This document shows positions 7,191 to 61,016 of a stretch of 64,000 nt of DNA, in pieces. The translations under genes and the position numbers were made by a program. The DNA comes from a bacterium (lineage in GTDB: Bacteria > Patescibacteriota > Minisyncoccia > JAHIHE01 > JAGLIN01), in contig DAOWDU010000011.1 of NCBI GenBank assembly GCA_030638825.1, positions 5,675-69,674 of the forward strand, read 5' to 3'. The number at the start of each line of letters is the position of its first letter. The first letter of the stretch is position 1. The notes below the pieces were generated by a model. That model saw nothing but the letters and a program-made list of their open reading frames with translations. It was not told where the DNA came from and made no database searches.

Positions 7191-7205
7191 ATTACTATTC
7201 TAATT

Positions 7206-7343
7206 GTCATTGCGAGGAGGCTGAATGAACGAAGTGAGAGAAAAGCCGACGAAGCAATCCCGTAACTATGCAAGATGAACTTAATCACGGGATTGCTTCG
7301 TCGCCTTCTCTTCGCTACGCTCAATCGGGCTTCTCGCAATGAC
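7206..7343. mobile_element. 138-bp MITE-like palindromic element with 11-bp terminal inverted repeats (gtcattgcgag ... ctcgcaatgac)
   Basis: Terminal inverted repeats at 7206-7216 and 7333-7343. Internal inverted repeat gacgaagcaatcccg (7248-7262) / cgggattgcttcgtc (7288-7302). The whole element is an imperfect palindrome. It is intergenic, between the rbfA stop and the nrnA-like start. Confidence 0.6.
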
Positions 7344-7351
7344 AGTTTACT

Positions 7352-10350: not shown

Positions 10351-10514
10351 GAGCGTCATGTAAACATTAAAACATATAAACATTTAAACAAGTTGCGTAA
10401 TAAAGAATTTAATTCAAGAATAAAGTTTAGTGGTTTCTTTTTTATTTTTTACTGAAATCTTTATTCTAAAATTTGTTTATTTGTTTATATGTTTTAATGT
10501 TTATATGAACCCTG

Positions 10515-13659: not shown

Positions 13660-13700
13660 CTATCATAGCCTCTTTTCTACGGCCGTGAGAAAGAGGCTAT
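13660..13700 (-). terminator. GC-rich hairpin (catagcctcttttctacggccgtgagaaagaggctatg). An identical stem sequence is re-used at 14293-14333.
   Basis: Stem-loop followed by T-rich sequence on the minus strand, immediately after the stop of the 13703-14233 gene. It is a near-identical direct repeat of the hairpin at 14293-14333. Confidence 0.55.
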
Positions 13701-13702
13701 GG

Positions 13703-14233
13703 TTATATTTCTATTTCTTCTATTAAAAATAATTTTATATAAGAGTCAACGGAATACTTTCTTAAGATGAGTTCAGTTTCTTTTTGGACGCTATAGGGAC
13801 AAATCCAGATACTTTGCTGAAGCATTTTATATTCTAAGAGACGAAGTTTTTCTCGCAACAAATCTCGCAGGTGTCTTTTTTCTTCGGGAATGTCAAAAAT
13901 TATCATCTGCCATTTCCCGTCTGGTCTTTTTTGTTTATTTTTTATTTTAAGTTTTGCTTTTAAAACTTTTTCAGCTCCTTTTTTTGTTAGAATAATTCCT
14001 TCATTTTGCTCCAGATTTTTAATCTTAATATAACCATTCTTTTTCAGACGATAAATTAATTGTCTAAATTGTCCCTTTGTCTGTTTTCTTTTATATTGAT
14101 CTTTCAATTCACGGAGAGATGGATAGCAATATTCTTTCATTTTTCTATACGAAAAAATAGTAAAAGTTTTATCTAACTTTTCAGCGTGATTATAAACATC
14201 TAATAAAAATTTATCAGTAATTGGCAGTTTCAT
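13703..14233 (-). CDS. Winged-helix DNA-binding domain fused to a Cas2-like (VapD / PaaX C-terminal fold) domain. Orphan: no cas1 or CRISPR array nearby.
   Basis: The C-terminal block MIIFDIPEEKRHLRDLLREKLRLLEYKMLQQSIWICPY matches the Cas2 pattern (YDI..R.R..L...G.R.Q.SVFEC). The N-terminus has a wHTH pattern. Confidence 0.5.
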   Translation of the reverse strand: MKLPITDKFLLDVYNHAEKLDKTFTIFSYRKMKEYCYPSLRELKDQYKRKQTKGQFRQLIYRLKKNGYIKIKNLEQNEGIILTKKGAEKVLKAKLKIKNKQKRPDGKWQMIIFDIPEEKRHLRDLLREKLRLLEYKMLQQSIWICPYSVQKETELILRKYSVDSYIKLFLIEEIEI

Positions 14234-14292
14234 GGAGCTTATTGAGTTTTAATATTTATCTAATTTTATTATACACTAATTCACGATATAGT

Positions 14293-14333
14293 CATAGCCT
14301 CTTTTCTACGGCCGTAGAAAAGAGGCTATGATT
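14293..14333 (-). terminator. GC-rich hairpin, second copy of the 13660-13700 hairpin, downstream of pilD
   Basis: catagcctcttttctacggccgtagaaaagaggctatg. Confidence 0.5.
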
Positions 14334-18524: not shown

Positions 18525-18599
18525 TTGTTAAATTGTTAAATTGTTAAATTGTTAAATTGTTATGCGTGGCATAGCAATATTTTTATGCCATGCATAACA
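18525..18599. repeat. Octamer tandem repeat (attgttaa) x about 5, then a 15-bp inverted repeat (gttatgcgtggcata / tatgccatgcataac). It lies directly upstream of the response-regulator ATG.
   Basis: The tandem array spans 18525-18563, and the inverted repeat spans 18559-18573 / 18585-18599. The 21-mer atgcataacaatttaacaat recurs at 45370-45395. Confidence 0.7.
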
Positions 18600-18623
18600 A
18601 TTTAACAATGTAGCAATTTAATT

Positions 18624-22164: not shown

Positions 22165-25100
22165 TTACAACAAGGACTTTATTTTTTCTTTCAGTTTTTT
22201 TATTTTTTTTTCGCTTTCCATAAATTTTTCTCTTTCTTTTTCAACAATTTCCCGCGGAGCATTGCCGACAAAATCATCATTGCCAAGTTTTGTTTTTATC
22301 TGGAAAATATATTTTTCTATATTTTCTATTTTTTTTTCTAAATTCTTTTTTTCTTTTTCTTTGTCAATTATTCCCTCTAAATAAATTTCAATATCGCCAA
22401 CAACTAAATAAACCGCGTCTTTGATTTTATCGTCCTTTTCTTTTATTTCTAATTTATCAATTCCAGTTCTGAGATTTTTGATTAAATGCGCTTGTGATTT
22501 GATAAATTCTTTTTTATTTCCAGCGTAAATTACAGCTTCAATTTTTTTACCTGGCTCAACCTTATATTCCGCGCGCGCGTTGCGAATGGCTTTAATAATA
22601 TTTTGAATTATTTCAAAATCGCGGGCTGTTGTGATTGTAGGGAACGGGCATGCCTGTTCCCTACAATCACGGTCAGCCCACTTTTCCACCATCAGTAAAT
22701 TTTCACTGTCTAAATTCTTCCAAATTTCTTCTGTCACAAACGGAATAAAAGGGTGAAATAAAATTAAAACTTGTTTTAAAATATAATTTAAAATCTCATT
22801 TTTATTTTTTTCAATTTTAGAAATTTCAATATACCAGTCAGCGAAATCGTTCCAGGTAAATTCTTTTATTTTTTCGCCAGCTTGCGAAAATTTATAATTA
22901 TTCAAATCATCTGTGACTTCTTTAGTTAAATTGTTTAGATTATTTAAGATCCATTTATCTGCTAATGTGGCATCAGAAGCTGGGCTTCCAATTGGAAGCC
23001 CAGCTTCTTTAGTATTATCAATATTCATAATAATATACCGTGAAACATTCCACAACTTATTCACAAAATTCCGATACCCTTCAACTTTTTCTTCATACAT
23101 CTTAATGTCATTTCCTGGACTGGATCCGATAATCATACTCAATCTCAAAGCGTCCGTTCCGTATTTCTCGATCATCTCGATCGGATCAATCCCATTTCCA
23201 AGAGACTTGCTCATTTTCTTTCCCTGCTTATCTCGTACCATTCCATGCAAATAAACATTTTCAAACGGGACTTCGCCAAGCGTATAAGTCGTCATCAAAA
23301 TCATTCTTGCCACCCAAAAAAACAAAATATCATAACCCGTTTCCATCACGCTTGTTGGATGAAACTTTTTCAAATCTGGACTATTCGCAACCCAATCTTC
23401 AAAAGTTTTATATTTCTCGTGATCCTGATTTAATAAAGTTGAAAATGTCCAAAGACCTGAGGAGAACCAGGTGTCTAGAGTGTCGGTGTCCTGTGTCCAG
23501 TTTTTTCCTTCTGGTGGATTAGTCCCAATATATATTTCTTGATTTTTATATTTCTTACCTTTCGGTATCATAGTATATACTATGGAACTATTATCAAATT
23601 TATTATTTAATTCATATTTCCATCCCGCTTGCCACTCTTTTGTTTTTCTCCAATCTTCATTAATCGCTTGCTCCCAAGTTCTATTTTTTAAAATTACATC
23701 TAGCGCTAACTGTGGAGCTTTGTGCGCAACAATAGCAATTTTTTTACCTTGATATTTATCTATTAAATCATTAAGAAAATCCCTGATTCTTTTTTCAACA
23801 TCTTTATAGCTCTCGCCCTTTGGAAATGGTTTGTCTATTACATTTTTTTCTATCACCAAAATTTCAGACGCACCAGCTTGTGTTAAATCTCCATAATCAC
23901 ACTCACGCAATCTTTCATCCTGAATGATTTTTACACCTCTATCACTAAACGTTAGGCTTGCAGAATCAACTGCTCGTTTCAAATCTGAACAAAATACAAT
24001 ATCAAATTTCTCATTTTCAATTGTTTTCTTTAAATCTTTTGACTGCTGAATTCCTAATTTTGATAATTTTACATCATAATGACCAGACGCTTTATTCTTC
24101 TCATTATCAATCGTCGTCCCATGAACAAAATAAGTAATATCAATTCCTGATTCCTGATTCCTGATTCCTGATTCATTTTTATACCAAACCGGAATCCGAT
24201 GCCCAAACCATAACTGACGGGAAATACACCAATCATGCAAATTTTCCATCCAATTATGATATGTTTTTTCAAATCTTTCAGGAATGATTTCAATTTTCTT
24301 GTCATTTTTTTCATCAGCTTTATTCACCACTTCCAAAGCAATTTCCTTCAAGGACTTATTTTGAAAATATTTATTTCCTCCAATTGTAATTTTCTTGTCA
24401 ACGGCGACAAACCATTGTTTTGATGGCAAAGGTTCAATCGGGGTATCACAGCGGTAGCAAATGCTTAAACTTTGATCTACTTCTTCAACTTTTTCAATTA
24501 AATTATTTTTCTCAAAATACTGGACTATTTTTTCTCGCGCTTCTAAAACTGTTAGTCCTTCATAATCTTTTCCTGCGTTCTCATTCATCTTCCCGTCTTC
24601 GCCAATAATTTTTATTTTCTCCAAATCATTTTTCTCTGCCATTTCCCAGTCAGTCATACTGTGCGCGGGAGTTACTCCTAATGCCCCAGTTCCAAACTTT
24701 ATTTCAACTTCTCTATCTGAAATAATTTTAATTTTATGTTTGCCATTTCCTAAATTTATTTCAAAAACTTTGCCAATATACTTTTTATATCTCTCATCTT
24801 TTGGATTAACAGCAACCGCTGTATCGCCTAACTTTGTTTCTGGTCTTGTTGTCGCGATTGTGATTGGAAAGTCTTTGTCATATTTAAAATAATACAGTTT
24901 CCCTTTTTGCTCTTCGTGTTCAACTTCATCATCCGCTAAAGTTGATTCGCATCTTGGGCACCAGTTGACAATTCTGTCTCCTCTATATATTAATTTATCA
25001 TTGAACATTTTTGTAAATACTTCCCTCACTGCGCGTGATAATCCATCATCAAGTGTGTATCTTTCCCTTGACCAATCGCAAGAAGAACCCATTTTTCTGG

Positions 25101-25512
25101 TTTGATTTTTAATTGTACTTTTTGAATTTTCTACATATTCATTTACTCGCTCCAGAAATTTCTCTCTGCCTAAATCATATTTCGTCTTCCCCTCTTTTGC
25201 GATTATCTTTTCTACTTTCGTCTGTGTCGCGATTGAAGCGTGGTCTGTTCCAGGAAGCCATAAAGTATTTTTTCCTTTCATTCTATTATACCTAATCATC
25301 AAATCCTGATAAGCAAGCATTGAAGCATGTCCTAAATGCAAAACTCCCGTCGCATTCGGCGGCGGCATTGAGATTGAAAAGTTTTGTAGGGAACAGGTAT
25401 GCCTGTTCCCTACAAAACTATTCGGATTAAAAAAACCAGACTTTTCCCAAGTCTTATAAATTTTATCTTCCACCTCTTGAGGATCATATGCTTTTGGAAT
25501 TTCTTTTTTCAT
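22165..25512 (-). CDS. valS: Valyl-tRNA synthetase with inserted domains
   Basis: HIGH (PNATGVLHLGHA), KMSKS and the anticodon-binding/coiled-coil C-terminus. 1115 aa, longer than typical ValRS because of insertions. Confidence 0.95.
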   Translation of the reverse strand: MKKEIPKAYDPQEVEDKIYKTWEKSGFFNPNSFVGNRHTCSLQNFSISMPPPNATGVLHLGHASMLAYQDLMIRYNRMKGKNTLWLPGTDHASIATQTKVEKIIAKEGKTKYDLGREKFLERVNEYVENSKSTIKNQTRKMGSSCDWSRERYTLDDGLSRAVREVFTKMFNDKLIYRGDRIVNWCPRCESTLADDEVEHEEQKGKLYYFKYDKDFPITIATTRPETKLGDTAVAVNPKDERYKKYIGKVFEINLGNGKHKIKIISDREVEIKFGTGALGVTPAHSMTDWEMAEKNDLEKIKIIGEDGKMNENAGKDYEGLTVLEAREKIVQYFEKNNLIEKVEEVDQSLSICYRCDTPIEPLPSKQWFVAVDKKITIGGNKYFQNKSLKEIALEVVNKADEKNDKKIEIIPERFEKTYHNWMENLHDWCISRQLWFGHRIPVWYKNESGIRNQESGIDITYFVHGTTIDNEKNKASGHYDVKLSKLGIQQSKDLKKTIENEKFDIVFCSDLKRAVDSASLTFSDRGVKIIQDERLRECDYGDLTQAGASEILVIEKNVIDKPFPKGESYKDVEKRIRDFLNDLIDKYQGKKIAIVAHKAPQLALDVILKNRTWEQAINEDWRKTKEWQAGWKYELNNKFDNSSIVYTMIPKGKKYKNQEIYIGTNPPEGKNWTQDTDTLDTWFSSGLWTFSTLLNQDHEKYKTFEDWVANSPDLKKFHPTSVMETGYDILFFWVARMILMTTYTLGEVPFENVYLHGMVRDKQGKKMSKSLGNGIDPIEMIEKYGTDALRLSMIIGSSPGNDIKMYEEKVEGYRNFVNKLWNVSRYIIMNIDNTKEAGLPIGSPASDATLADKWILNNLNNLTKEVTDDLNNYKFSQAGEKIKEFTWNDFADWYIEISKIEKNKNEILNYILKQVLILFHPFIPFVTEEIWKNLDSENLLMVEKWADRDCREQACPFPTITTARDFEIIQNIIKAIRNARAEYKVEPGKKIEAVIYAGNKKEFIKSQAHLIKNLRTGIDKLEIKEKDDKIKDAVYLVVGDIEIYLEGIIDKEKEKKNLEKKIENIEKYIFQIKTKLGNDDFVGNAPREIVEKEREKFMESEKKIKKLKEKIKSLL
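22631..22670. repeat. Family-A palindrome (gtgattGTAGGGAACgGGCATGCCTGTTCCCTACaatcac), in frame in valS
   Basis: 40-bp palindrome with one central mismatch. It encodes ...ACPFPTITT... in valS. Confidence 0.8.
22975..23008. repeat. Family-B palindrome (aGAAGCTGGGCTTCCAATTGGAAGCCCAGCTTCt), in frame in valS
   Basis: Perfect 34-bp palindrome. It encodes EAGLPIGSPAS. Confidence 0.8.
24143..24175. repeat. Heptamer tandem repeat (attcctg) x4 inside valS
   Basis: Encodes ESGIRNQESGI at the start of the ValRS insertion. Confidence 0.8.
25380..25419. repeat. Family-A palindrome (agttttGTAGGGAACAGGtATGCCTGTTCCCTACaaaact), in frame near the valS N-terminus
   Basis: It encodes the VGNRHTCSLQ insertion between the conserved N-terminal segment and the HIGH region. 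Confidence 0.8.
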
Positions 25513-28825: not shown

Positions 28826-28972
28826 GAAATAATTTCTAATTTTCAATTTCTAATTTCTATTAAATTTTCAAGGAATTAAGTTTCAAATAATATTTTGAAA
28901 ACAAGAATTTAGAACTTGAAGAATTTAGAACTTTAATAAAAATTAGAAATTAGAAATTGAAAATTTAAATTC

Positions 28973-29422
28973 ATGCAATACGGTGTTCCACAATTTATAA
29001 ATGTAGAGGATAAAATAGTTGGTCCTTTTACAGGGAAGCAAACGGTCTGCCTTATTGTCGGCGGCGGGATTTTGATGCTGTTCTTTTCAATTTTTGATTT
29101 TGTCTTTTTCGCGTTTGCGGCCATAATAATTATTCCTCTAACCCTGGCGTTTGCTTTTTGGAAACCAAAAGGGATTTCTGTTTTCAGGTTGATTTTAAAC
29201 AGAGTAAACTTTGGCGTTTCTAATCATCTTTATGTTTGGAGGAGAGAGCCTGATGACAGGATGTTTAAGGCAGCGCAAAAAGTAAAATCATCCAAAAAAA
29301 TAGCTGAAAAAAATGTTTCCAGAAATAGGATCAGAGAGCTAGCCTGGCTTCTTGATACAAGCACCTCTGTAAATCTTCCCTACGAAGTTAAGACAAGAGC
29401 GAGAGAAGGAATTAGAAAATAA
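28973..29422 (+). CDS. PrgI-family / VirB3-like small membrane protein
   Basis: VPQFINVEDKIVGPFTGKQTVCLIVGGGILMLFF matches the PrgI pattern (K..GPFT.RQ), followed by two TM helices. Confidence 0.55.
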   Translation: MQYGVPQFINVEDKIVGPFTGKQTVCLIVGGGILMLFFSIFDFVFFAFAAIIIIPLTLAFAFWKPKGISVFRLILNRVNFGVSNHLYVWRREPDDRMFKAAQKVKSSKKIAEKNVSRNRIRELAWLLDTSTSVNLPYEVKTRAREGIRK

Positions 29423-29490
29423 TGTGGAGTGCGTTGTCAGTATTGGTGTGTTGTTGTTTAGTGGAGCTCAAAGAATTGAAATAAGTTCTT

Positions 29491-29545
29491 AATTTCAAAA
29501 TCCAAATTATGTCAAATTATTCCAAATCAAATCCAAATTTAAAAA
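29491..29545. repeat. Left inverted repeat (ccaaat-rich) flanking the four-helix-bundle gene
   Basis: aatttcaaaatccaaattatgtcaaattattccaaatcaaatccaaattt. It is the reverse-complement partner of 29927-29995 and a homolog of 30751-30800. Confidence 0.7.
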
Positions 29546-29922
29546 CTCAAAAGATTTATGATCTAGAAGAAAGAACAGCTATATTTGGAGAAAATGTAGT
29601 AGAGTTCTGTAAATCTTTACCTCAAAATAATATAAGCATTCCATTGCTTAGGCAGGTAATCAGATCAGGAACAAGTGTAGGAGCAAATTATTGCGAAGCA
29701 GATGGAGCAGAATCAGGAAAAGATTTTAAGCATAAGATTGCCATTTGTAAAAAGGAATCAAAAGAAACAAAGCATTGGTTCCGAATGATTGCCAAAGCTC
29801 TTCCAGATAAAGCTAATGAATGTCGAAAACTATGGAAAGAAGCTCAAGAATTAACTTTAATTTTTTCTTCTATTTTAAATCCAAAAAAGAAAGACAAAGA
29901 CAAAATAAGCGATAAACAATGA
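29509..29922 (+). CDS. Four-helix-bundle protein of the 23S rRNA intervening-sequence protein family (the DGR Avd fold family)
   Basis: LEERT...GANYCEA...ICKKESKETKHWFRM matches the S23/IVS four-helix-bundle family signature (KE..ET.YWL). Confidence 0.7.
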   Translation: MSNYSKSNPNLKTQKIYDLEERTAIFGENVVEFCKSLPQNNISIPLLRQVIRSGTSVGANYCEADGAESGKDFKHKIAICKKESKETKHWFRMIAKALPDKANECRKLWKEAQELTLIFSSILNPKKKDKDKISDKQ

Positions 29923-29926
29923 GTAA

Positions 29927-29995
29927 TTTTAGCATTTGATATTTGAATTTGATTTGGAATAATTTGAGCTTTGGAATAATTTGGAATTTATAAAC
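29927..29995. repeat. Right inverted repeat (atttgg-rich) flanking the four-helix-bundle gene
   Basis: ttttagcatttgatatttgaatttgatttggaataatttgagctttggaataatttggaattt, about 90% identical to 30806-30875. Confidence 0.7.
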
Positions 29996-30064
29996 CTATT
30001 TTAGCAAAATAAATTATCATTCACTCTTTATAATTTTTTATTTTCAACCTCTAACCCTAACATC

Positions 30065-30739
30065 ATGTCTACTCCCCTCAAACAAAAAAAAATAGGTCTA
30101 AGTTCCCAAAAATATCTGGAGATCGCCGAGATAAAAGATGGCGTTGTTGTGATGAAAAATACAAGCCTGAAAGCTGTTTTGATGGTTTCTTCCATAAACT
30201 TTGCGTTGAAATCCATTGACGAGCAAGACGCTATCATTTATCATTTTCAGAGTTTTTTGAACTCCATTGATTTTTCGGTCCAAATAGTTATAAATTCCAG
30301 ACAATTAAATCTGGACAATTATTTGCGCGCGCTTAAAGATCAAGAGAAAAAACAAAGCAACGAGCTTTTACGAATGCAAACTTCCAGTTATATAGAATAT
30401 ATTCAGGGACTTATTAAGATGGCCAATATCGTAAGCAAAACATTTTATATCGTTATTCCTTTCGCGCCTTCGGAGTCCAGAGGCGACGGACTTATGTCAA
30501 AAATGAAAGCAGTGGCTAATCCAGCCAAACTTATGTCAGGCAGAGAATCGTTTGAAAAATATAAAGATCAACTGCTGCAAAGAGTTGACCATGTTATAGA
30601 AAATTTAAGTGGAGCAGGGTTGCGAATGACCATGCTCAATACACAGGAGCTGATAGAGCTTTATTACAATTTATACAATCCCGAAATTTCAGAAAAAAAA
30701 GGTTTAGCGGATGTGGAGGAATTGGATCTGGCTCGTTAA
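30065..30739 (+). CDS. VirB4 N-terminal-domain-like protein (possible detached N-terminal part of the T4SS ATPase)
   Basis: KYLEIAEIKDGVVVMKNTSLKAVLMVSSINF resembles the VirB4/TrbE N-terminal pattern (..tKdGsl.avl.v.g.d). No TM segment. Confidence 0.4.
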   Translation: MSTPLKQKKIGLSSQKYLEIAEIKDGVVVMKNTSLKAVLMVSSINFALKSIDEQDAIIYHFQSFLNSIDFSVQIVINSRQLNLDNYLRALKDQEKKQSNELLRMQTSSYIEYIQGLIKMANIVSKTFYIVIPFAPSESRGDGLMSKMKAVANPAKLMSGRESFEKYKDQLLQRVDHVIENLSGAGLRMTMLNTQELIELYYNLYNPEISEKKGLADVEELDLAR

Positions 30740-30750
30740 ATTAAAAATTA

Positions 30751-30875
30751 AAATTGTTCCAAATTACTCCAAATCAAATCTAAAATCCAAATCTTAAAAA
30801 TAAATTTTAGTATTTGAAATTTGGATTTGATTTGGAATAATTTGAGCTTTGGAACAATTTGGATTTTTATAGATT
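30751..30875. mobile_element. Solo copy of the ccaaat/atttgg inverted-repeat pair forming a ~120-bp hairpin (MITE-like), between the two VirB4-like ORFs
   Basis: L2 (30751-30800) and R2 (30806-30875) are adjacent. They are homologous to L1 and R1, which flank the gene at 29509-29922. Confidence 0.6.
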
Positions 30876-30897: not shown

Positions 30898-32739
30898 ATG
30901 TCTTTACTGGATAAAATTCTACCAAACAAAACTCAATCCAAAACAACCATAGATCCTTCCCAAAAGTCCGCTCTTTTGGAGTCGGAAAAAATATATCAAA
31001 GAGGATTGGCGACGGTCAAAGATATTATCGCTCCCGCGGCTTTTAAAATTGAGTCGGATCATGTAATGATTAACAAAAAAATGGCCTCAACCTTTTTTGT
31101 TTACGCTTATCCGAGGTTTTTGCAAACAAACTGGTTTTCTCCGATTATAAACCTGGACACGACTTTTGATATTGCAATGTTTATTCATCCTCAAAGCACC
31201 GCTGAGATTTTAAGGAATTTGCGGAAGATTATAACCCAAATCCAATCGCAAATTTCTATTAACGAAGAAAAGGGGTTGGTAAGAGACCCAATTTTGGAAA
31301 CTGCTTTTCAGGATGTTGAGAATTTAAGAGATGATTTGCAGCAGGGAGTTGAGCATTTTTTTCAGTTCGGTCTTTATATCACAATATATGGAGATACAAA
31401 AGAAGAACTAAGAAAAATTGAGACTCAAATAGAAGCAATTTTAGAATCAAAACTTATTTATATCAAACCAGCCATTATGCAAATGGAGGCGGGATTTAAT
31501 TCAACGCTTCCGCTCGGATCTGATAAACTGATGATCGGAAATAATATGAACACCTCTCCCCTTTCCACTACTTTTCCTTTTGTATCCAGCGACTTAACTT
31601 CCAATCAGGGGATATTATATGGGATTAACAGGCACAATAACAGTTTGGTTCTGTTTGACAGATTTTCTATGGAAAATGCGAATATGGTTATTTTCGCCAA
31701 ATCTGGCGCTGGAAAAAGTTACGCTGTGAAACTTGAAATTTTACGAAGTTTAATGATGGACACTGAAGTTATTATTATTGATCCTGAAGATGAATATAAA
31801 CATCTTTGTGAAACTACAGGAGGAACTTTCTTGAGAATTTCTCTGTCGTCAAAACATCATATCAATCCGTTTGACTTGCCGACCGCTATGGAAGATGAAA
31901 CTCCAGCTGATGTTTTGCGAACCGCTATTTCAAATATTTCAGGACTTTTAAAAGTTATGCTTGGAAAAATCTCCACGGAAGAAGATTCAATTTTAGACAG
32001 AGCGATCGCGGAAACTTATGCTATTAAAGATATCACTCCCGAAGCTGATTTTACTAATTTAGAAATGCCGACAATGACAGACTTGCAGATGGTTTTAGAA
32101 AATATGAAGGGCGCGGAAAGTTTATCTATCAGAATTAAAAAATATACAGAAGGAACTTTCGCTGGGTTTTTAAATCACAAGACAAACATTAGTGTTGATA
32201 CAGGAATGATTGTTTTCAATATCAGAGATATGGAAGATGAATTAAGGCCAGTAGCGATGTATTTAATCCTGCATTTTATTTGGACATTGATTAGAACAAA
32301 AACGAAAAAAAGAATGATGGTTATTGACGAAGCCTGGTGGATGATGCAGCACGAGGATGCCGCTTCGTTTCTTTTTGGAATTGCGAAAAGATGCCGAAAG
32401 TATTATTTAGGTCTGACGACTATTACGCAGGATGTGACTGATTTTATGGGCTCTAGATTTGGCAAGCCGATTGTGACGAATTCCTCAATTCAGCTTTTGC
32501 TCAAACAGTCCCCCGCGGCGATTAAAGTTATCGTGGACACATTTTATCTGACAGACGAAGAAAAGTTTTTGCTCTTGGAAAGCAATGTCGGGGAAGGAAT
32601 TTTCTTCGCTGGCCCGAAGCGCGCGGCGATCAAAGTTGTCGCTTCTTATTCCGAAGATCAAATTATAACTTCTGACCCGGCGCAATTGTTGGAAATTGAG
32701 AGGGCGAAGAAGGAATTAAGAGAGATAGCGGGAGAGTAG
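30898..32739 (+). CDS. VirB4/TrbE/CagE-family T4SS ATPase (C-terminal ATPase part). The start is reassigned to the ATG at 30898.
   Basis: Walker A FAKSGAGKSYAVK, Walker B MMVIDEAWWMM and RK...TQ. The ORF-track start at 30859 is a TTG inside the repeat element, and a tataat lies 9 nt before the ATG at 30898. Confidence 0.7.
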   Translation: MSLLDKILPNKTQSKTTIDPSQKSALLESEKIYQRGLATVKDIIAPAAFKIESDHVMINKKMASTFFVYAYPRFLQTNWFSPIINLDTTFDIAMFIHPQSTAEILRNLRKIITQIQSQISINEEKGLVRDPILETAFQDVENLRDDLQQGVEHFFQFGLYITIYGDTKEELRKIETQIEAILESKLIYIKPAIMQMEAGFNSTLPLGSDKLMIGNNMNTSPLSTTFPFVSSDLTSNQGILYGINRHNNSLVLFDRFSMENANMVIFAKSGAGKSYAVKLEILRSLMMDTEVIIIDPEDEYKHLCETTGGTFLRISLSSKHHINPFDLPTAMEDETPADVLRTAISNISGLLKVMLGKISTEEDSILDRAIAETYAIKDITPEADFTNLEMPTMTDLQMVLENMKGAESLSIRIKKYTEGTFAGFLNHKTNISVDTGMIVFNIRDMEDELRPVAMYLILHFIWTLIRTKTKKRMMVIDEAWWMMQHEDAASFLFGIAKRCRKYYLGLTTITQDVTDFMGSRFGKPIVTNSSIQLLLKQSPAAIKVIVDTFYLTDEEKFLLLESNVGEGIFFAGPKRAAIKVVASYSEDQIITSDPAQLLEIERAKKELREIAGE

Positions 32740-47195: not shown

Positions 47196-47339
47196 AATTC
47201 ATTTCTTACGCCGCTTAAAACAAATAAATAATAAGCCGAATTTTGTTTTCTGATATAAAATCAAAATGATAATCATCTATCTAGCCATACTATTGCTAGT
47301 ATGATCAAGCGAGCTACTTTTTTCCCAACTAACTTACAA

Positions 47340-47693
47340 CTTACAACTTACAATTTTAATATTGTTATTTGTTATGAGTTATAGGTTATAAGTTAGTCAG
47401 GATTTGCTCTTGCACCAGGCAGGGTTTACCATCATTTGCTGTCACCAGCAAGGAAAGAGCGTAGATTTAAATTTATAAAAATTCAAATCATCGCCCAACT
47501 TTTCACCTTTTATCATGTATAACATGATTAGTATAGTCTCTGTGGCACTTTCCCTATCCTAAAAAAATTAGAACGGTTGCCGTTAGCAACTGCCTGCTTC
47601 CAGGTTATTTTAAAGTAATCTGGGGTGTTCGGACTTTCCTCTCCTATTCTTTAAAAGAACAAAAGCGATTATCTAATTTACCATTTTAAGCTC
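47340..47693 (-). ncRNA. rnpB: RNase P RNA (bacterial type), ends approximate
   Basis: The non-coding region is GC-richer than its surroundings. The minus strand carries GAGGAAAGUCCGAAC (P4 5' strand), GGGAAAGUGCCACAGAGA, AAGGUGAAAAG, GGUAAACCCUGCCUGG and GCAAGAGCAAAU in canonical order. An extended -10 TGTATAAT lies at 47700-47707 (minus strand). Confidence 0.6.
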
Positions 47694-57571: not shown

Positions 57572-57595
57572 ATGTTTATATGTTAAAATGTTTAT

Positions 57596-58156
57596 ATGAC
57601 AATAGATATTAATAAAATTGGCAGTGGGGGGTTTATGAATCCAGATAAAATTGTGGAAGAACTCAATATTAAAAACGGGATGTTCGTTGCTGATTTTGGC
57701 TGTGGCGCTGGATATTTTACAATCCCAATCGCTAAAATAATAAAAAACAGCGGCAAAATTTACGCAATAGATGTTTTAAATGAATCGTTAGAAAATGTTT
57801 TAAGCAAAGCAAAATTATATGATTTGCTTAATATTAAAACTGTTCGGGCTAATATAGAAATAATTGGCGGATCAAAAATAGAAAGCGGTTCCGTTGATTT
57901 GGTAATTCTCGCCAATATACTTTTTCAATGCAATGATCATAGTTCGGTTTTGAACGAAGCTAAGAGAATCTTGAAGAATAATGGCAGTGTTGTTGTTGTA
58001 GATTGGATTCCCAAAAAAGTTCCTTTAGGACCAAAATATGAGCATTGCCTCAGCGAGGAAACTATAAAAAAACTTGCTATAAAGAATGGACTGAAAGTTG
58101 TCAGAAAAATAGACGCTGGAAATCAGCATTATGGGATGGTGTTGAAAAACATATAA
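57596..58156 (+). CDS. Class I SAM-dependent methyltransferase
   Basis: Motif I VADFGCGAGYFTIPIA. Confidence 0.8.
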   Translation: MTIDINKIGSGGFMNPDKIVEELNIKNGMFVADFGCGAGYFTIPIAKIIKNSGKIYAIDVLNESLENVLSKAKLYDLLNIKTVRANIEIIGGSKIESGSVDLVILANILFQCNDHSSVLNEAKRILKNNGSVVVVDWIPKKVPLGPKYEHCLSEETIKKLAIKNGLKVVRKIDAGNQHYGMVLKNI

Positions 58157-58216
58157 ACATATAAACATATAAACATATAAACATATAAACATATAAACAT
58201 ATAAACATATAAACAT
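58151..58216. repeat. Octamer tandem repeat (atataaac) x8.25, overlapping the methyltransferase stop codon
   Basis: Perfect copies from 58151. The unit is the core of the recurrent intergenic ACATATAAACA motif. Confidence 0.9.
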
Positions 58217-58263
58217 GGGGGCTTCAAAGGTTTGTTTAAATGTTTACATGCTTATATGTTTAA

Positions 58264-59646
58264 ATGATCTTTATGACTAAGCAAAAAATATTTTTAATTG
58301 GTTTTATACTTTCCGTCTTATCAATAATCGCCTGGTATATAGTTGGCTGTCCTTTGGCGGAGAAATGTCCGTTTGTGAGATTTGAAAAAGAAGAAGCTCC
58401 AAAGGTAATTCTGACATTTGTCGGTCCTACGGACAATGCCAGCGACTGGAACGCAATTTTTTCTAAGTTTAACGCTTATAAAAAAAGACCGGAAAATGGT
58501 TTTTTGGATGTGATTATAAAATACGAAAGGGTGTGCAATCCAATCTGCGATCAGGATGATTACGAAGATATGGTAAGAGAAAGGCAATATGAAGACGAGG
58601 GACCGAATATCTTTATGGCTTATAGCTCCTGGATTCCAAGACACAAGGATAAGCTTTTGCCTGCGCCAAAAGGAATGATGAATCTGGCGGAATTTGAGAA
58701 CACTTTTGCGCAAGTGACAAAAAATGACTTAACCGATGAAAAGGGAAATATTTACGCGCTTCCGTTTTATGTGGATACTTTGGCCTTGTATTATGATAAC
58801 GATGCTTTTTTAAATGAGAATTTAATAAAGCCTCCTATAAATTGGGATGAATTTGAGGAGTATGTGGAAAAATTAACTATTGTTGATGAAGATGGAAATT
58901 TTATAAGAGCTGGAGCTGCTTTTGGAGGCGGAAGCAATATAAATAGAGGCCAAGATATTTTAATGCTTCTAATAATGCAGAATAATATCAGCAGTAAGAC
59001 AGTAGGAAATTTGGTTTCATTTAATAATAAAGGTAGTCCTGCAGCGATAAATTTTTATACTGACTTTACCAATCCTAAAAAGAGATTTTATACCTGGAAT
59101 GAAAATCAAATGTATTCCATAGACGCTTTTACTCAGAAGAAAGCTGCGATGATGATTAATTATTCTCATCATATTGATAATGTAATTGAGAAAACGAGTA
59201 ATAATTTGAATTTTAAAATTGCTCCAATTCCTCAATTGGATAGAAATAGTAAAGTTAATTATGCTAGTTACTGGGTTCCTGTTGTTCCCAAAAAAGCTCC
59301 TTGCGGAAAAGAAGCAAAAACGAACGCGAATTGCTACAGTTTAGCTTGGGAATTTTTAGATTTTGCGGCTAAAAAACAAAATGCCAAATTATATTTAGAT
59401 TCCACAAAAAAACCTGCTGCTAATTTAGAACTTGCGAAAGAGCAATTTACAGATTTTAATGATCAGCGAAGCGTGTTTGCCGGACAGGTGTTTACGGCTA
59501 AAAGTTGGGAACATCCAGATAGCTCATTGAGCGATAAAATTTTAGTGAAAATGATAGATTCTATAATAACAACTAATCAAGAATTCAAAAAAAGTATTTT
59601 CGAAGCAATGGCTGTGGCTGCTAGATATGTTGATAGTTTGAATTAG
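58264..59646 (+). CDS. Extracellular solute-binding protein (family 1, sugar-type ABC substrate-binding protein). Orphan: no permease genes adjacent.
   Basis: N-terminal TM/lipobox-like anchor (IVGC), LPFYVDTLALYYDNDAF and PPINWDEF family-1 SBP blocks. Confidence 0.55.
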   Translation: MIFMTKQKIFLIGFILSVLSIIAWYIVGCPLAEKCPFVRFEKEEAPKVILTFVGPTDNASDWNAIFSKFNAYKKRPENGFLDVIIKYERVCNPICDQDDYEDMVRERQYEDEGPNIFMAYSSWIPRHKDKLLPAPKGMMNLAEFENTFAQVTKNDLTDEKGNIYALPFYVDTLALYYDNDAFLNENLIKPPINWDEFEEYVEKLTIVDEDGNFIRAGAAFGGGSNINRGQDILMLLIMQNNISSKTVGNLVSFNNKGSPAAINFYTDFTNPKKRFYTWNENQMYSIDAFTQKKAAMMINYSHHIDNVIEKTSNNLNFKIAPIPQLDRNSKVNYASYWVPVVPKKAPCGKEAKTNANCYSLAWEFLDFAAKKQNAKLYLDSTKKPAANLELAKEQFTDFNDQRSVFAGQVFTAKSWEHPDSSLSDKILVKMIDSIITTNQEFKKSIFEAMAVAARYVDSLN

Positions 59647-59780: not shown

Positions 59781-59857
59781 TGGTGGGCCATCCTGGACTC
59801 GAACCAGGGACTTCGACCTTATAAGGATCGCGCTCTAACCAACTGAGCTAATGGCCC
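59781..59857 (-). tRNA. tRNA-Ile with anticodon UAU (reads AUA), CCA encoded
   Basis: The reverse complement gggccattagctcagttggttagagcgcgatccttataaggtcgaagtccctggttcgagtccaggatggcccacca has anticodon stem cgatc/ggtcg, loop ctTATaa, A37 and the GGTTCGAGTCC T-arm. Confidence 0.8.
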
Positions 59858-60011: not shown

Positions 60012-61016
60012 TTACTTTTTACTGTGAAACTTCTTGTGAATATTTTTCAAATGCTTGTCTGTGATGTGCGTGTAAATTTGAGTTGTCGTGATACTGGAAT
60101 GGCCGAGCATTGACTGGACGCTTCTAATGTCAGCGCCGTTCATTAGTAAATCTGTCGCAAAACTGTGCCGCAAAGTATGGGGCGTCACTTTTTTTACGAT
60201 GCCCGCTTTGACGGCATATTTTTCTACTATTCTTTGAATAGTTCTTACTGTCAGTCGTAAAGATTGATTTGCTTTTGCTTTATTTTTCTTACTGTTTTTT
60301 TTGCTTTTATTTTCATTATTGCAATAGCCACCGCCTTTTTTTCTAAAATTTATAAATAACGCAGGGTCAATATCTTTCCTTTTTTTAAGATAATCTATTA
60401 TGGCATCTTTTGCTGAGTCGGAAATAAAAACAAGACGGATTTTTCCTCCCTTTCCCCTTATAGAAAACTCGCCGCTTTTGAGATTTATGTTTTCCCTGTT
60501 TAAATTAGCAAGTTCCGAGACGCGAAGTCCAGTGGAAAATAGCAATTCTAAAATCGCTTTATCGCGCAGGCGATGGAAATATTGAAGGCGACATTCCGGA
60601 ATGTCGCCTTCAATATTTCCATCGCCTGTTTTCACAGATTCTAATAATCTTTTTATCTCATCCGCTTCTAAAAATTCTACTTCTCGCTCTTGCGTTTTTC
60701 CAAGCTCCACTTTTTCACTTGCCAATGTTTCAATATCTTGTTTTGCTAAATATTTCAAAAAACCGCGCAAGGCGATTATATAATAATCCTGTGTTGCTTT
60801 TTTTAAATTTTTTTCTTTACGATCTTTATATCTATTGAGATATAACCTGAATTTCTTTACCAATTCACCTGTAATATCCTCTGGATTTCTGATCATTGCC
60901 CAATCTAAAAACCGATTTAAATAATGATCGTAGTTTCTAATTGTCAGCTGTGATCTATTTTTCTCAATCTCCAAATATTCAAGAAATTCAATTTTTAATT
61001 CTTTTATTTTTTCCAT
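60012..61016 (-). CDS. Tyrosine recombinase (XerC/XerD / phage-integrase family) with a Lys/Asn-rich insertion
   Basis: The C-terminal catalytic block HTLRHSFATDLLMNGADIRSVQSMLGHSSITTTQIYTH (R...HxxR...Y). XerD-like N-terminal core-binding domain. Confidence 0.8.
   Translation of the reverse strand: MEKIKELKIEFLEYLEIEKNRSQLTIRNYDHYLNRFLDWAMIRNPEDITGELVKKFRLYLNRYKDRKEKNLKKATQDYYIIALRGFLKYLAKQDIETLASEKVELGKTQEREVEFLEADEIKRLLESVKTGDGNIEGDIPECRLQYFHRLRDKAILELLFSTGLRVSELANLNRENINLKSGEFSIRGKGGKIRLVFISDSAKDAIIDYLKKRKDIDPALFINFRKKGGGYCNNENKSKKNSKKNKAKANQSLRLTVRTIQRIVEKYAVKAGIVKKVTPHTLRHSFATDLLMNGADIRSVQSMLGHSSITTTQIYTHITDKHLKNIHKKFHSKK

Follow-up and report, generated by a model that had tools for sequence, protein, structure and literature searches.

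In this work we analyse a small genetic element inside a type IV secretion system (T4SS)-like operon of a bacterium of the Patescibacteriota. The window, that is, the whole stretch of 64,000 nt that was analysed (GenBank assembly GCA_030638825.1, contig DAOWDU010000011.1, positions 5,675 to 69,674 of the forward strand; positions below count from its first letter), is a low-GC (34%) Patescibacteria-type chromosome segment. At 29489-29998 on the plus strand, between a PrgI/VirB3-like gene and the gene of a TraC-like protein, lies a full element of about 510 bp, composed of a left arm, an open reading frame (ORF) for a four-helix-bundle (4HB) protein and a right arm. We consider it probable that this is a palindromic selfish element of the type of the intervening sequences (IVSs) of ribosomal RNA (rRNA), autonomous-looking and resident in transcribed operon spacers, where it is accompanied by ORF-less derivatives resembling miniature inverted-repeat transposable elements (MITEs).

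The left arm (29479-29545, plus strand) is C/A-rich and built of CAAAT-type units. It holds the ATG of the gene, at 29509, and encodes residues 1-12, so that the overlap of about 12 codons given in a preliminary description of this DNA was correct. The gene itself (29509-29922, plus strand) codes for 137 aa of the S23p / 23S_rRNA_IVP / TIGR02436 family, and it is followed by a G/T-rich right arm with ATTTG-type units (29925-30001, plus strand), the reverse complement of the left one. The arms had been described as reverse-complement partners bracketing the gene, and a repeat search recovered them as such (L1, 29512-29544, against R1, 29935-29967: 33 nt, 91% complementary); a gapped alignment widens the pairing to 29479-29544 and 29935-30001. 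The 20-mer TTTGATTTGGAATAATTTGA occurs in four copies in the window with up to three mismatches, against 0.18 expected, and only two copies of the CAAAT arm type are present within the 64 kb. In the predicted fold of the 551-nt region around the gene, both arms pair around the ORF (z = -4.2). The limits of the element come from a locus of another organism, L219, where an 86%-identical 4HB protein with the same arms is encoded inside a NiFe-hydrogenase-type operon: a right-arm core of 45 nt is identical between the two loci and homology stops at the arm ends, which defines the window element as about 29489-29998.

Both right arms of the window, this one and that of a solo hairpin described below, hold a sigma-70-like site (TTGAnA, 16 nt, TG-n-AATAAT; 29936-29963 and 30814-30841) facing the downstream gene. 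These are weak consensus matches, and the regional total of such sites is not above that of shuffled sequence; as a lead only, the motifs suggest that the arms might supply an outward promoter. When the arm sequences were scanned for intrinsic terminators no terminator-like site appeared, and the reading of the arms as terminators was discarded on that ground. There is no rRNA gene in the 64-kb window.

The 4HB protein matches PF05635 (E = 1.7e-12, 47.9 bits against a cutoff of 33.8) and TIGR02436 (E = 1.1e-19, 70.6 bits against a cutoff of 24), and the family profile matches entry 2RLD of the Protein Data Bank (PDB) at 1.8e-18. An AlphaFold2 (AF2) monomer model, with a predicted local distance difference test (pLDDT) of 85, has helices at residues 19-35, 43-65, 70-97 and 99-123, and residues 1-15, the arm-encoded part, are disordered in it. 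By Foldseek, this model resembles 2RLD with a template-modelling (TM) score of 0.90 and a root-mean-square deviation (rmsd) of 1.9, and 2GSC with a TM of 0.83, both of them crystal structures with five chains, whereas its scores against the Avd structures of diversity-generating retroelements (DGRs; 4DWL, 8UB7) are 0.57-0.74 (0.69 for 4DWL). Judged by the model, the protein is much closer to the S23p structures than to Avd. PF05635 has been treated as Avd-like in published work (PMC10053308), and the preliminary description had also placed the gene in the Avd family; an Avd-like fold is indeed present, but S23p is much closer (TM 0.90 for 2RLD against 0.69 for 4DWL) and the nearest system is the IVS, not the DGR. 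Neither PADLOC (defence systems) nor PHROGs (phage families) has a match for the 4HB protein, and membership of a defence system or of a phage family was ruled out for this reason.

Distribution of the element among phyla and within one operon

A scan with one genome per species returned at least 573 loci, and the best 80, whose proteins are 54-73% identical to that of the window, were taken for comparison. They belong to Patescibacteria, Nitrospirota, Desulfobacterota, Chloroflexota, Zixibacteria, Verrucomicrobiota, Actinomycetota, Ignavibacteria, Brocadiales and others. Inverted repeats (score of at least 30) flank 61 of 79 4HB genes (77%), against 4-8 of 79 in reverse-only or complement-only controls and 2-3% of the remaining ORFs of these loci, one such control match being a second 4HB gene. 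These three controls were used in place of RNAduplex with mismatched partners, which was confounded because the arms of different loci share heptamer motifs. The median score of matches between arms of different elements is 24, above background; shuffled sequence reaches about 17, and an arm with its own partner 38.

The left arm typically reaches from -34 to +7 relative to the ATG, and the right arm from +13 to +57 after the stop codon. Of 122 arms, 97 have their strongest periodicity at a lag of 7 nt; their units follow the consensus (C/T/A)AA(T/A)TN(C/A), as in CAAATGN or TAATTTC, and the median arm of 38 nt corresponds to 5.4 units. A period of 8 nt was ruled out for the arms of this subfamily, since lag 7 dominates; some other hairpins of the window do use 8-nt units. 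The arms have a polarity (C exceeds G in the 5' arm of 51 elements, G exceeds C in 7), and insertion is almost always in the sense orientation, with both neighbours on the strand of the 4HB gene in 53 loci and both on the opposite one in 2. The elements have a GC content of 0.34, against 0.43 in their flanks, and it is lower than that of the flanks even in hosts of 60-67% GC. None of 40 scanned related loci lies in an rRNA gene, and a linked transposase was not found in any of more than 90 loci.

Metagenomes of JGI were also scanned, with a 19-mer of the arm, which gave at least 120 loci. Among the matches listed, about 28 count as solo hairpins of the arm type seen in the window, having a partner arm no more than 120 nt away and lacking a 4HB gene; their flanking ORFs are almost all mutually unrelated. 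About six are copies with a 4HB gene in linkage, and about 90 of the 130 listed, which have neither partner arm nor 4HB gene, were treated as chance. In many solos the loop has kept the sequence ...AATCCAAATGACAAAAAA..., which in full elements encodes an N-terminal part of the protein (NPNDKK), and for this reason the solos are best explained as ORF-deleted derivatives. RNAalifold found no compensatory pairs among 29 solo hairpins, whose core is fixed by the search pattern (an ascertainment bias). The 4HB subfamily is absent from the viral contigs of IMG/VR, where three 19-mer matches had no partner arms, and carriage of the element by phages was set aside on this ground. The arms are thus not peculiar to the window: further copies, with and without the 4HB gene, exist at L219, in other relatives and in metagenomes, as a mobile unit of the kind first suspected would lead one to expect.

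In the host operon the order of genes is conserved, namely those for an 800-aa and a 257-aa protein, the PrgI/VirB3-like gene, the TraC-like 224-aa protein, the VirB4 ATPase, further genes and, last, a pilin-like one. According to a published survey of the patescibacterial T4SS, in which four-helix-bundle genes are not mentioned, the operon is near-universal in Patescibacteria and often has a highly expressed location (PMC12102498). All on the plus strand of the window, the upstream neighbour of the element is the PrgI/VirB3-like gene (28973-29422; PF12666), kept in all relatives; the gene of the TraC-like N-terminal protein (30065-30739, 224 aa; PF26593) comes between the full element and a solo hairpin, and the VirB4-type ATPase (30898-32739; PF19044, PF12846, PF01935) lies downstream, its ATG at 30898 aligning with the start in the closest relative. 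The TraC-like protein is a separate gene product of about 222-226 aa in nearly all of 120 listed homologues, from which it follows that the hairpin did not split VirB4, an idea that was therefore dismissed. At L003 (6793-7857), in a 95%-related operon, a Fic-domain gene comes after the VirB4 ATPase, where the window has a 308-aa membrane-like ORF.

Within this operon, the spacers before PrgI (s1), between PrgI and TraC-N (s2), between TraC-N and VirB4 (s3) and after VirB4 (s4) differ greatly from one relative to another. The window has a solo hairpin with AATTTCT arms in s1, the full element in s2 and a solo hairpin with CAAAT arms in s3. L218, the closest relative (4HB protein 93% identical), carries the same full element in s2, its s1 is without the AATTTCT hairpin and its s3 measures only 38 nt, such that the window's solo hairpin corresponds to a clean 119-nt indel (30748-30866). 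At L003, s1 holds a different 4HB gene (26% identical, with TTCTATTG arms) and s2 is just 80 nt; at L004, an internally deleted remnant of the L003-type element is found in s1 and a third 4HB gene in s2, with the arms of the window's s1 solo. The same decayed remnant occupies both s2 and s3 of L005, where only the six initial codons are left and a further palindromic repeat breaks it up, and the internally deleted remnants of L004 and L005 retain the ATG and first codons. Others have 4HB genes in s2 and s4 (L088/L089), in s2 (L090) or in s1 (L093), so that genes of different subfamilies sit in s1, s2, s4 or no spacer, depending on the relative. Presence thus varies among relatives of the operon, with s3 of L218 empty, and the arms cannot be regarded as ordinary spacer sequence common to this operon, a possibility raised at the outset, as the hairpin families differ and spacers s1 and s3 of L218 are without the window's solo hairpins.

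The element moves as a unit, whose ends are the ends of the arms, and loss of the ORF leaves solo hairpins that are themselves dispersed. The clearest case is that of L088 and L093, which have the same element in different spacers, s4 and s1 respectively: the proteins are 82% identical, the shared 35-bp arms match exactly within L088 and with one mismatch in L093, and homology starts and stops exactly at the arm ends. L088 combines, in addition, a full element in s2 with a solo hairpin of the same arms in s1, the arrangement seen in the window.

Strong purifying selection acts on the protein and also on the primary sequence of the arms. Between the window and L218, the ORF shows a ratio of nonsynonymous to synonymous substitution rates (dN/dS) of 0.05, with 42-45% of synonymous sites changed, while the right arm has no change in 79 positions and the left arm four in 67; the non-arm upstream spacer has 14 in 56 (25%). 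For L088 s4 and L093 s1 the ratio is 0.067, dS exceeds 1 and the arms are nearly identical. The low dN/dS, together with arms far more conserved than synonymous sites, indicates that both protein and arm sequence are constrained, the latter beyond complementarity. In the inner parts of many solo stems, CAAA/TTTG cores are kept more than perfect pairing is.

Solo hairpins and other features of the window

The solo copy in s3 was recognised by its fold and by arm homology (30742-30869, plus strand, 128 nt, without ORF). Its arms, 30742-30799 and 30805-30869, are separated by a 5-nt loop, across which L2 (30760-30799) and R2 (30805-30844) are 85% complementary, and the region is predicted to fold as a single long hairpin (-44.2 kcal/mol, z = -8.3). 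L1 and L2 are direct copies, 78% identical over 64 nt, as are R1 and R2, 82% identical over 89 nt with an identical 30-nt core. The preliminary description had already seen this homologous pair of abutting arms, at an R-arm identity of about 90% that is a little high for the full length (82%), and had located it rightly between two VirB4-related ORFs, which are the TraC-like N-terminal protein (30065-30739) and the ATPase (30898-32739). Of the two names then offered for it, an empty site or a solo version, it is the solo, ORF-less copy; the true empty site is in L218. As a short non-coding unit bounded by terminal inverted repeats, it presents this feature of a MITE. The second solo hairpin, in s1 upstream of the PrgI-like gene (28829-28974, plus strand), belongs to the other arm family, with AATTTCT heptamers and 58 nt between the arms, and its arms have the same sequence as those around the 4HB genes in L004 and in L053, a locus of the Campbellbacteria genome CP011215.1. 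Under the explanation that we favour for the whole locus, and at the same level of confidence, both hairpins would be ORF-less derivatives of 4HB elements.

Other palindromes of the window recall these ones. A 94-nt hairpin of TTAAATTG octamers (18528-18621, z = -16.8) is similar both to the arms (TTCTATTG/TTATATTG) of the 4HB element of L003 type and to the solo hairpin in s3 of L091/L092, and it is probably another ORF-less derivative, of a different arm family. At 7202-7347 there is a nested palindromic repeat bounded by ATTGTCATTGCGAGG...CTCGCAATGACA (z = -14), whose family also interrupts both decayed 4HB elements of L005 (3730-3900 and 4720-4890), which implies that palindromic repeat families insert into one another. 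In total, 10 of 34 intergenic spacers of 60-420 nt in the window fold at z of -5 or below relative to shuffles. Many public contigs carrying these 4HB genes are shorter than 1 kb, and the contig of one relative ends in spacer s2, which suggests that such palindromes break assemblies.

Genes other than those of 4HB proteins also occur next to such repeats. Two copies of a G+C-rich hairpin (CATAGCCTCTTTTCTACGGCCGT.AGAAAGAGGCTATG; 13662-13729 and 14265-14332) bracket a 176-aa ORF (13703-14233, minus strand) with a PaaX_M / Cas2-like domain, which, from its position, may be another gene enclosed by a palindromic repeat in two copies. Around the gene of a 186-aa methyltransferase (57596-58156, within the region 57572-58271) there are ATGTTTATATG-type units upstream and, downstream, a (CATATAAA)x8 array with a partner arm; a hairpin of 150 nt lying between tRNA-Phe and tRNA-Leu (10356-10508) is made of this octamer too, and no 4HB-bearing relative of this arm family was seen among the loci compared. 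Long palindromes inside coding sequence are unusual, and the window has a perfect one of 62 nt (60567-60628) within a XerC/D-like integrase ORF (60012-61016) and one of 72 nt (575-646, 94% complementary) within the ORF 316-774, besides a 26-bp hairpin at 232-287. Three further features concern RNA and translation: a valyl-tRNA-synthetase-like ORF of 1115 aa (22165-25512, minus strand) has a His_Phos_1 domain (residues 464-601, E = 1.9e-30) inserted within its catalytic tRNA-synt_1 region; a tRNA-Ile with the anticodon TAT (UAU) is encoded at 59781-59857 (minus strand), instead of the usual lysidine-dependent CAU type; and the match to class A RNase P RNA (47216-47684, minus strand) measures 469 nt against a model of 367 positions, implying sizeable insertions.

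Interpretation, mechanism and alternatives

The first interpretation of the locus, a MITE-like element with cargo, stands in part. There is a discrete mobile unit with an ORF-less, MITE-like derivative; it is not a MITE in the strict sense, as no target-site duplication was seen and a transposase-bearing parent is lacking, and the 4HB gene is not cargo but the signature gene of the element family, because 77% of 79 homologues carry arms and dN/dS is about 0.05. As for the mechanism, no obvious promoter belongs to the element, which would be transcribed by read-through from the host operon; such co-transcription is suggested by the orientation bias and would make an own promoter unnecessary. 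In the transcript, the arms would pair as a stem of 40-65 bp, a length compatible with RNase III cleavage, and RNase III would cut this stem as it does in rRNA IVSs, so that the 4HB mRNA is set free and the cistrons on either side come apart intact. By making the insertion harmless, such an excision would explain its tolerance in a conserved, essential-looking operon. We infer co-transcription, an RNase III substrate and harmless excision from the presence in the window element of all structural features of an IVS except its location.

The 4HB protein would most likely be the element's own specificity factor, binding the heptamer arrays of the arms either as RNA or as DNA. Binding to the arms could regulate processing or translation, favour the copying of the element into transcribed spacers nearby, or do both, with catalysis supplied by host enzymes. 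We prefer this hypothesis because the family forms pentameric rings, because the related Avd is part of the DGR ribonucleoprotein and because the arm heptamers are extremely conserved. A bolder version, which we regard as speculative and rather doubtful, would make the TIGR02436/S23p protein the recognition factor of a class of transposase-less mobile elements, its ring binding about five heptamers per arm in the manner of TRAP and steering RNase III processing, translation and copying; rRNA IVSs would then be a special case. A new class of transposase-less mobile element is a minority possibility, and what would be new here is the existence of IVS-type selfish elements outside rRNA, ORF-bearing rRNA IVSs being already known. 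The literature searched contains papers on rRNA IVSs and on DGR/Avd, and in it we found no 4HB genes as the core of heptamer-armed elements inserted in sense in operon spacers and giving rise to MITE-like derivatives.

Three other explanations were weighed. In a classical DNA MITE or insertion sequence (IS), the arms would be the terminal inverted repeats of a transposase encoded elsewhere and the 4HB gene a frequent passenger. The inverted repeats do extend to the very ends of the unit, the matches listed for this arm type include about 28 copies without the ORF and about 6 with it, full and solo copies cluster locally (in the window, L088 and L005), and stem mismatches have no strand bias. 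A passenger, however, would hardly be the same small gene in 77% of 79 cases across phyla, co-transferred with its arms and under strong purifying selection, and a near-exclusive sense orientation (53 to 2) is unexpected of it. No target-site duplication was seen at the filled/empty junction or at the element ends, no transposase is linked in more than 90 loci, and the sole recombinase of the window, the XerC/D-like one, is 30 kb away, so that we hold this explanation to be unlikely. We give somewhat less credit still to a host-beneficial punctuation of the operon, through RNA processing, stability or termination, with the 4HB genes as ordinary regulated host genes in hairpin loops. In all relatives, almost all spacers of the operon hold some hairpin, conservation of the arm sequence is very strong, the R arms contain a promoter-like motif, and 10 of the 34 spacers of the window fold much better than shuffles; yet the hairpin families differ in the same spacer of close relatives, one of which has none, identical elements occur in unrelated operons and phyla, the signature of an intrinsic terminator was not found, and decayed remnants and nested insertions resemble the turnover of junk.

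The last explanation, a remnant or accessory of a DGR in which the 4HB protein is an Avd with its reverse transcriptase (RT) elsewhere and the repeats are related to the template and variable repeats (TR/VR), is very improbable. It draws on the fold, which resembles Avd (4DWL and 8UB7, TM 0.57-0.74), and on the treatment of PF05635 as Avd-like in print (PMC10053308). But the earlier remark that no RT or TR/VR pair is visible is borne out, as the 28 window ORFs scanned, all neighbours included, have no RT domain and the only long repeats around the gene are the inverted arms and their solo copies: they are heptamer-built and 40-65 nt long, not a direct TR/VR pair with adenine-specific differences. 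The unit is, furthermore, a closed 510-bp element, PADLOC has no match for the protein, and this protein is much closer to S23p structures.

A number of points weigh against the IVS-type selfish element that we favour. No catalytic activity is on record for 4HB proteins and no mobility enzyme was found, and the S23p of Coxiella is apparently not made in vivo (PMC4990558). At the L218 junction, and at the ends of the elements of L088, L093 and L219, no target-site duplication stands out, but one of 1-3 nt would be hidden by the AT-rich flanks. The conserved CAAA/TTTG cores are explained no less well by repeats that bind a protein than by a simple stem for RNase III, and the stem mismatches on the sense strand are G.U in 62 cases and A.C in 75, so that, with no bias for G.U, nothing favours selection at the level of RNA over that of DNA. 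Co-transcription and cleavage by RNase III are deduced for the window element by analogy. Lastly, the 80 loci represent one subfamily picked by similarity to the query, more distant TIGR02436 members being included as three subfamilies from the operon relatives.

The interest of an IVS-type element of this kind goes beyond the present operon. The origin of IVSs and the function of the S23p ORF are questions that have stood since the early 1990s (PMC4990558), and in many genomes few unexplained small genes are as common as those annotated 'four helix bundle protein'. In one large 4HB subfamily, most genes are now seen as the single gene of a discrete heptamer-armed element, which hops between operon spacers and between phyla and spawns hairpin-only derivatives, so that what was an rRNA curiosity becomes a general and testable class of selfish element. 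In the reduced genomes of Patescibacteria, 4HB elements would account for a large share of the long intergenic hairpins, and these hairpins are probably the reason for assembly breaks there. The binding of heptamer arrays offers a concrete hypothesis for the 4HB protein, and the patescibacterial T4SS a case in which to ask how essential operons tolerate, or exploit, internal RNA processing sites.

Comparison with known systems

The closest counterpart is the ORF-bearing rRNA IVS of Coxiella burnetii and Leptospira (PMC4990558), with which the element shares a size of about 430-510 nt, a long terminal inverted-repeat stem and a single S23p/PF05635 ORF in the loop, as well as a GC content below that of the host, sporadic horizontal spread, sense orientation in a highly transcribed unit and the existence of short versions without ORF. 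In Coxiella, the IVS has 428 nt, a stem of 28-bp terminal inverted repeats, an S23p ORF and excision by RNase III, and a mobile origin for this type of IVS has long been suspected and left unexplained (PMC4990558). In the candidate phyla radiation (CPR), too, rRNA insertions with genes of the 23S_rRNA_IVP family have been described (PMC11270868). Unlike rRNA IVSs, the window element lies between a PrgI-like and a TraC-like gene and not in rRNA helix 9, 25 or 45, its arms are heptamer arrays, and its type of solo derivative is dispersed like a MITE; excision by RNase III, demonstrated for the rRNA IVS, is predicted for the element.

With the Avd of DGRs (4DWL, 8UB7), a pentameric, nucleic-acid-binding accessory of a mobile or variable element, the protein shares a 4HB fold of the same superfamily. 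It differs in the lack of an RT or a TR/VR pair in the window, and in TM scores of 0.57-0.74 against 0.83-0.90 for S23p. The likeness to MITEs consists in copies placed in differing contexts, such as the approximately 28 solos with unrelated flanking ORFs, and in the filled and empty site seen against L218; in contrast to MITEs, the parent element encodes a 4HB protein only and no transposase.

Among the intergenic palindromes of other bacteria, the Correia elements of Neisseria and the enterobacterial ERIC sequences are 100-150 bp long, co-transcribed, dispersed in many contexts, and form hairpins that are targets of RNases and may carry outward promoters. Correia elements make a TA duplication. 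These families are not known to have an ORF-bearing parent encoding a 4HB protein; here, unlike in them, the arm families are highly diverse and heptamer-built, and no target-site duplication was seen. REP and REPIN sequences are likewise short intergenic palindromes, which are spread by a single dedicated gene, that of RAYT, with many non-autonomous copies per gene. RAYT is an HUH nuclease encoded outside the repeats, usually in single copy and flanked by REPs. The numerical relation of many non-autonomous palindromes to each protein gene is common to both systems, but the element described here encodes its non-catalytic-looking 4HB protein inside the palindrome and is horizontally mobile, as a whole, across phyla.

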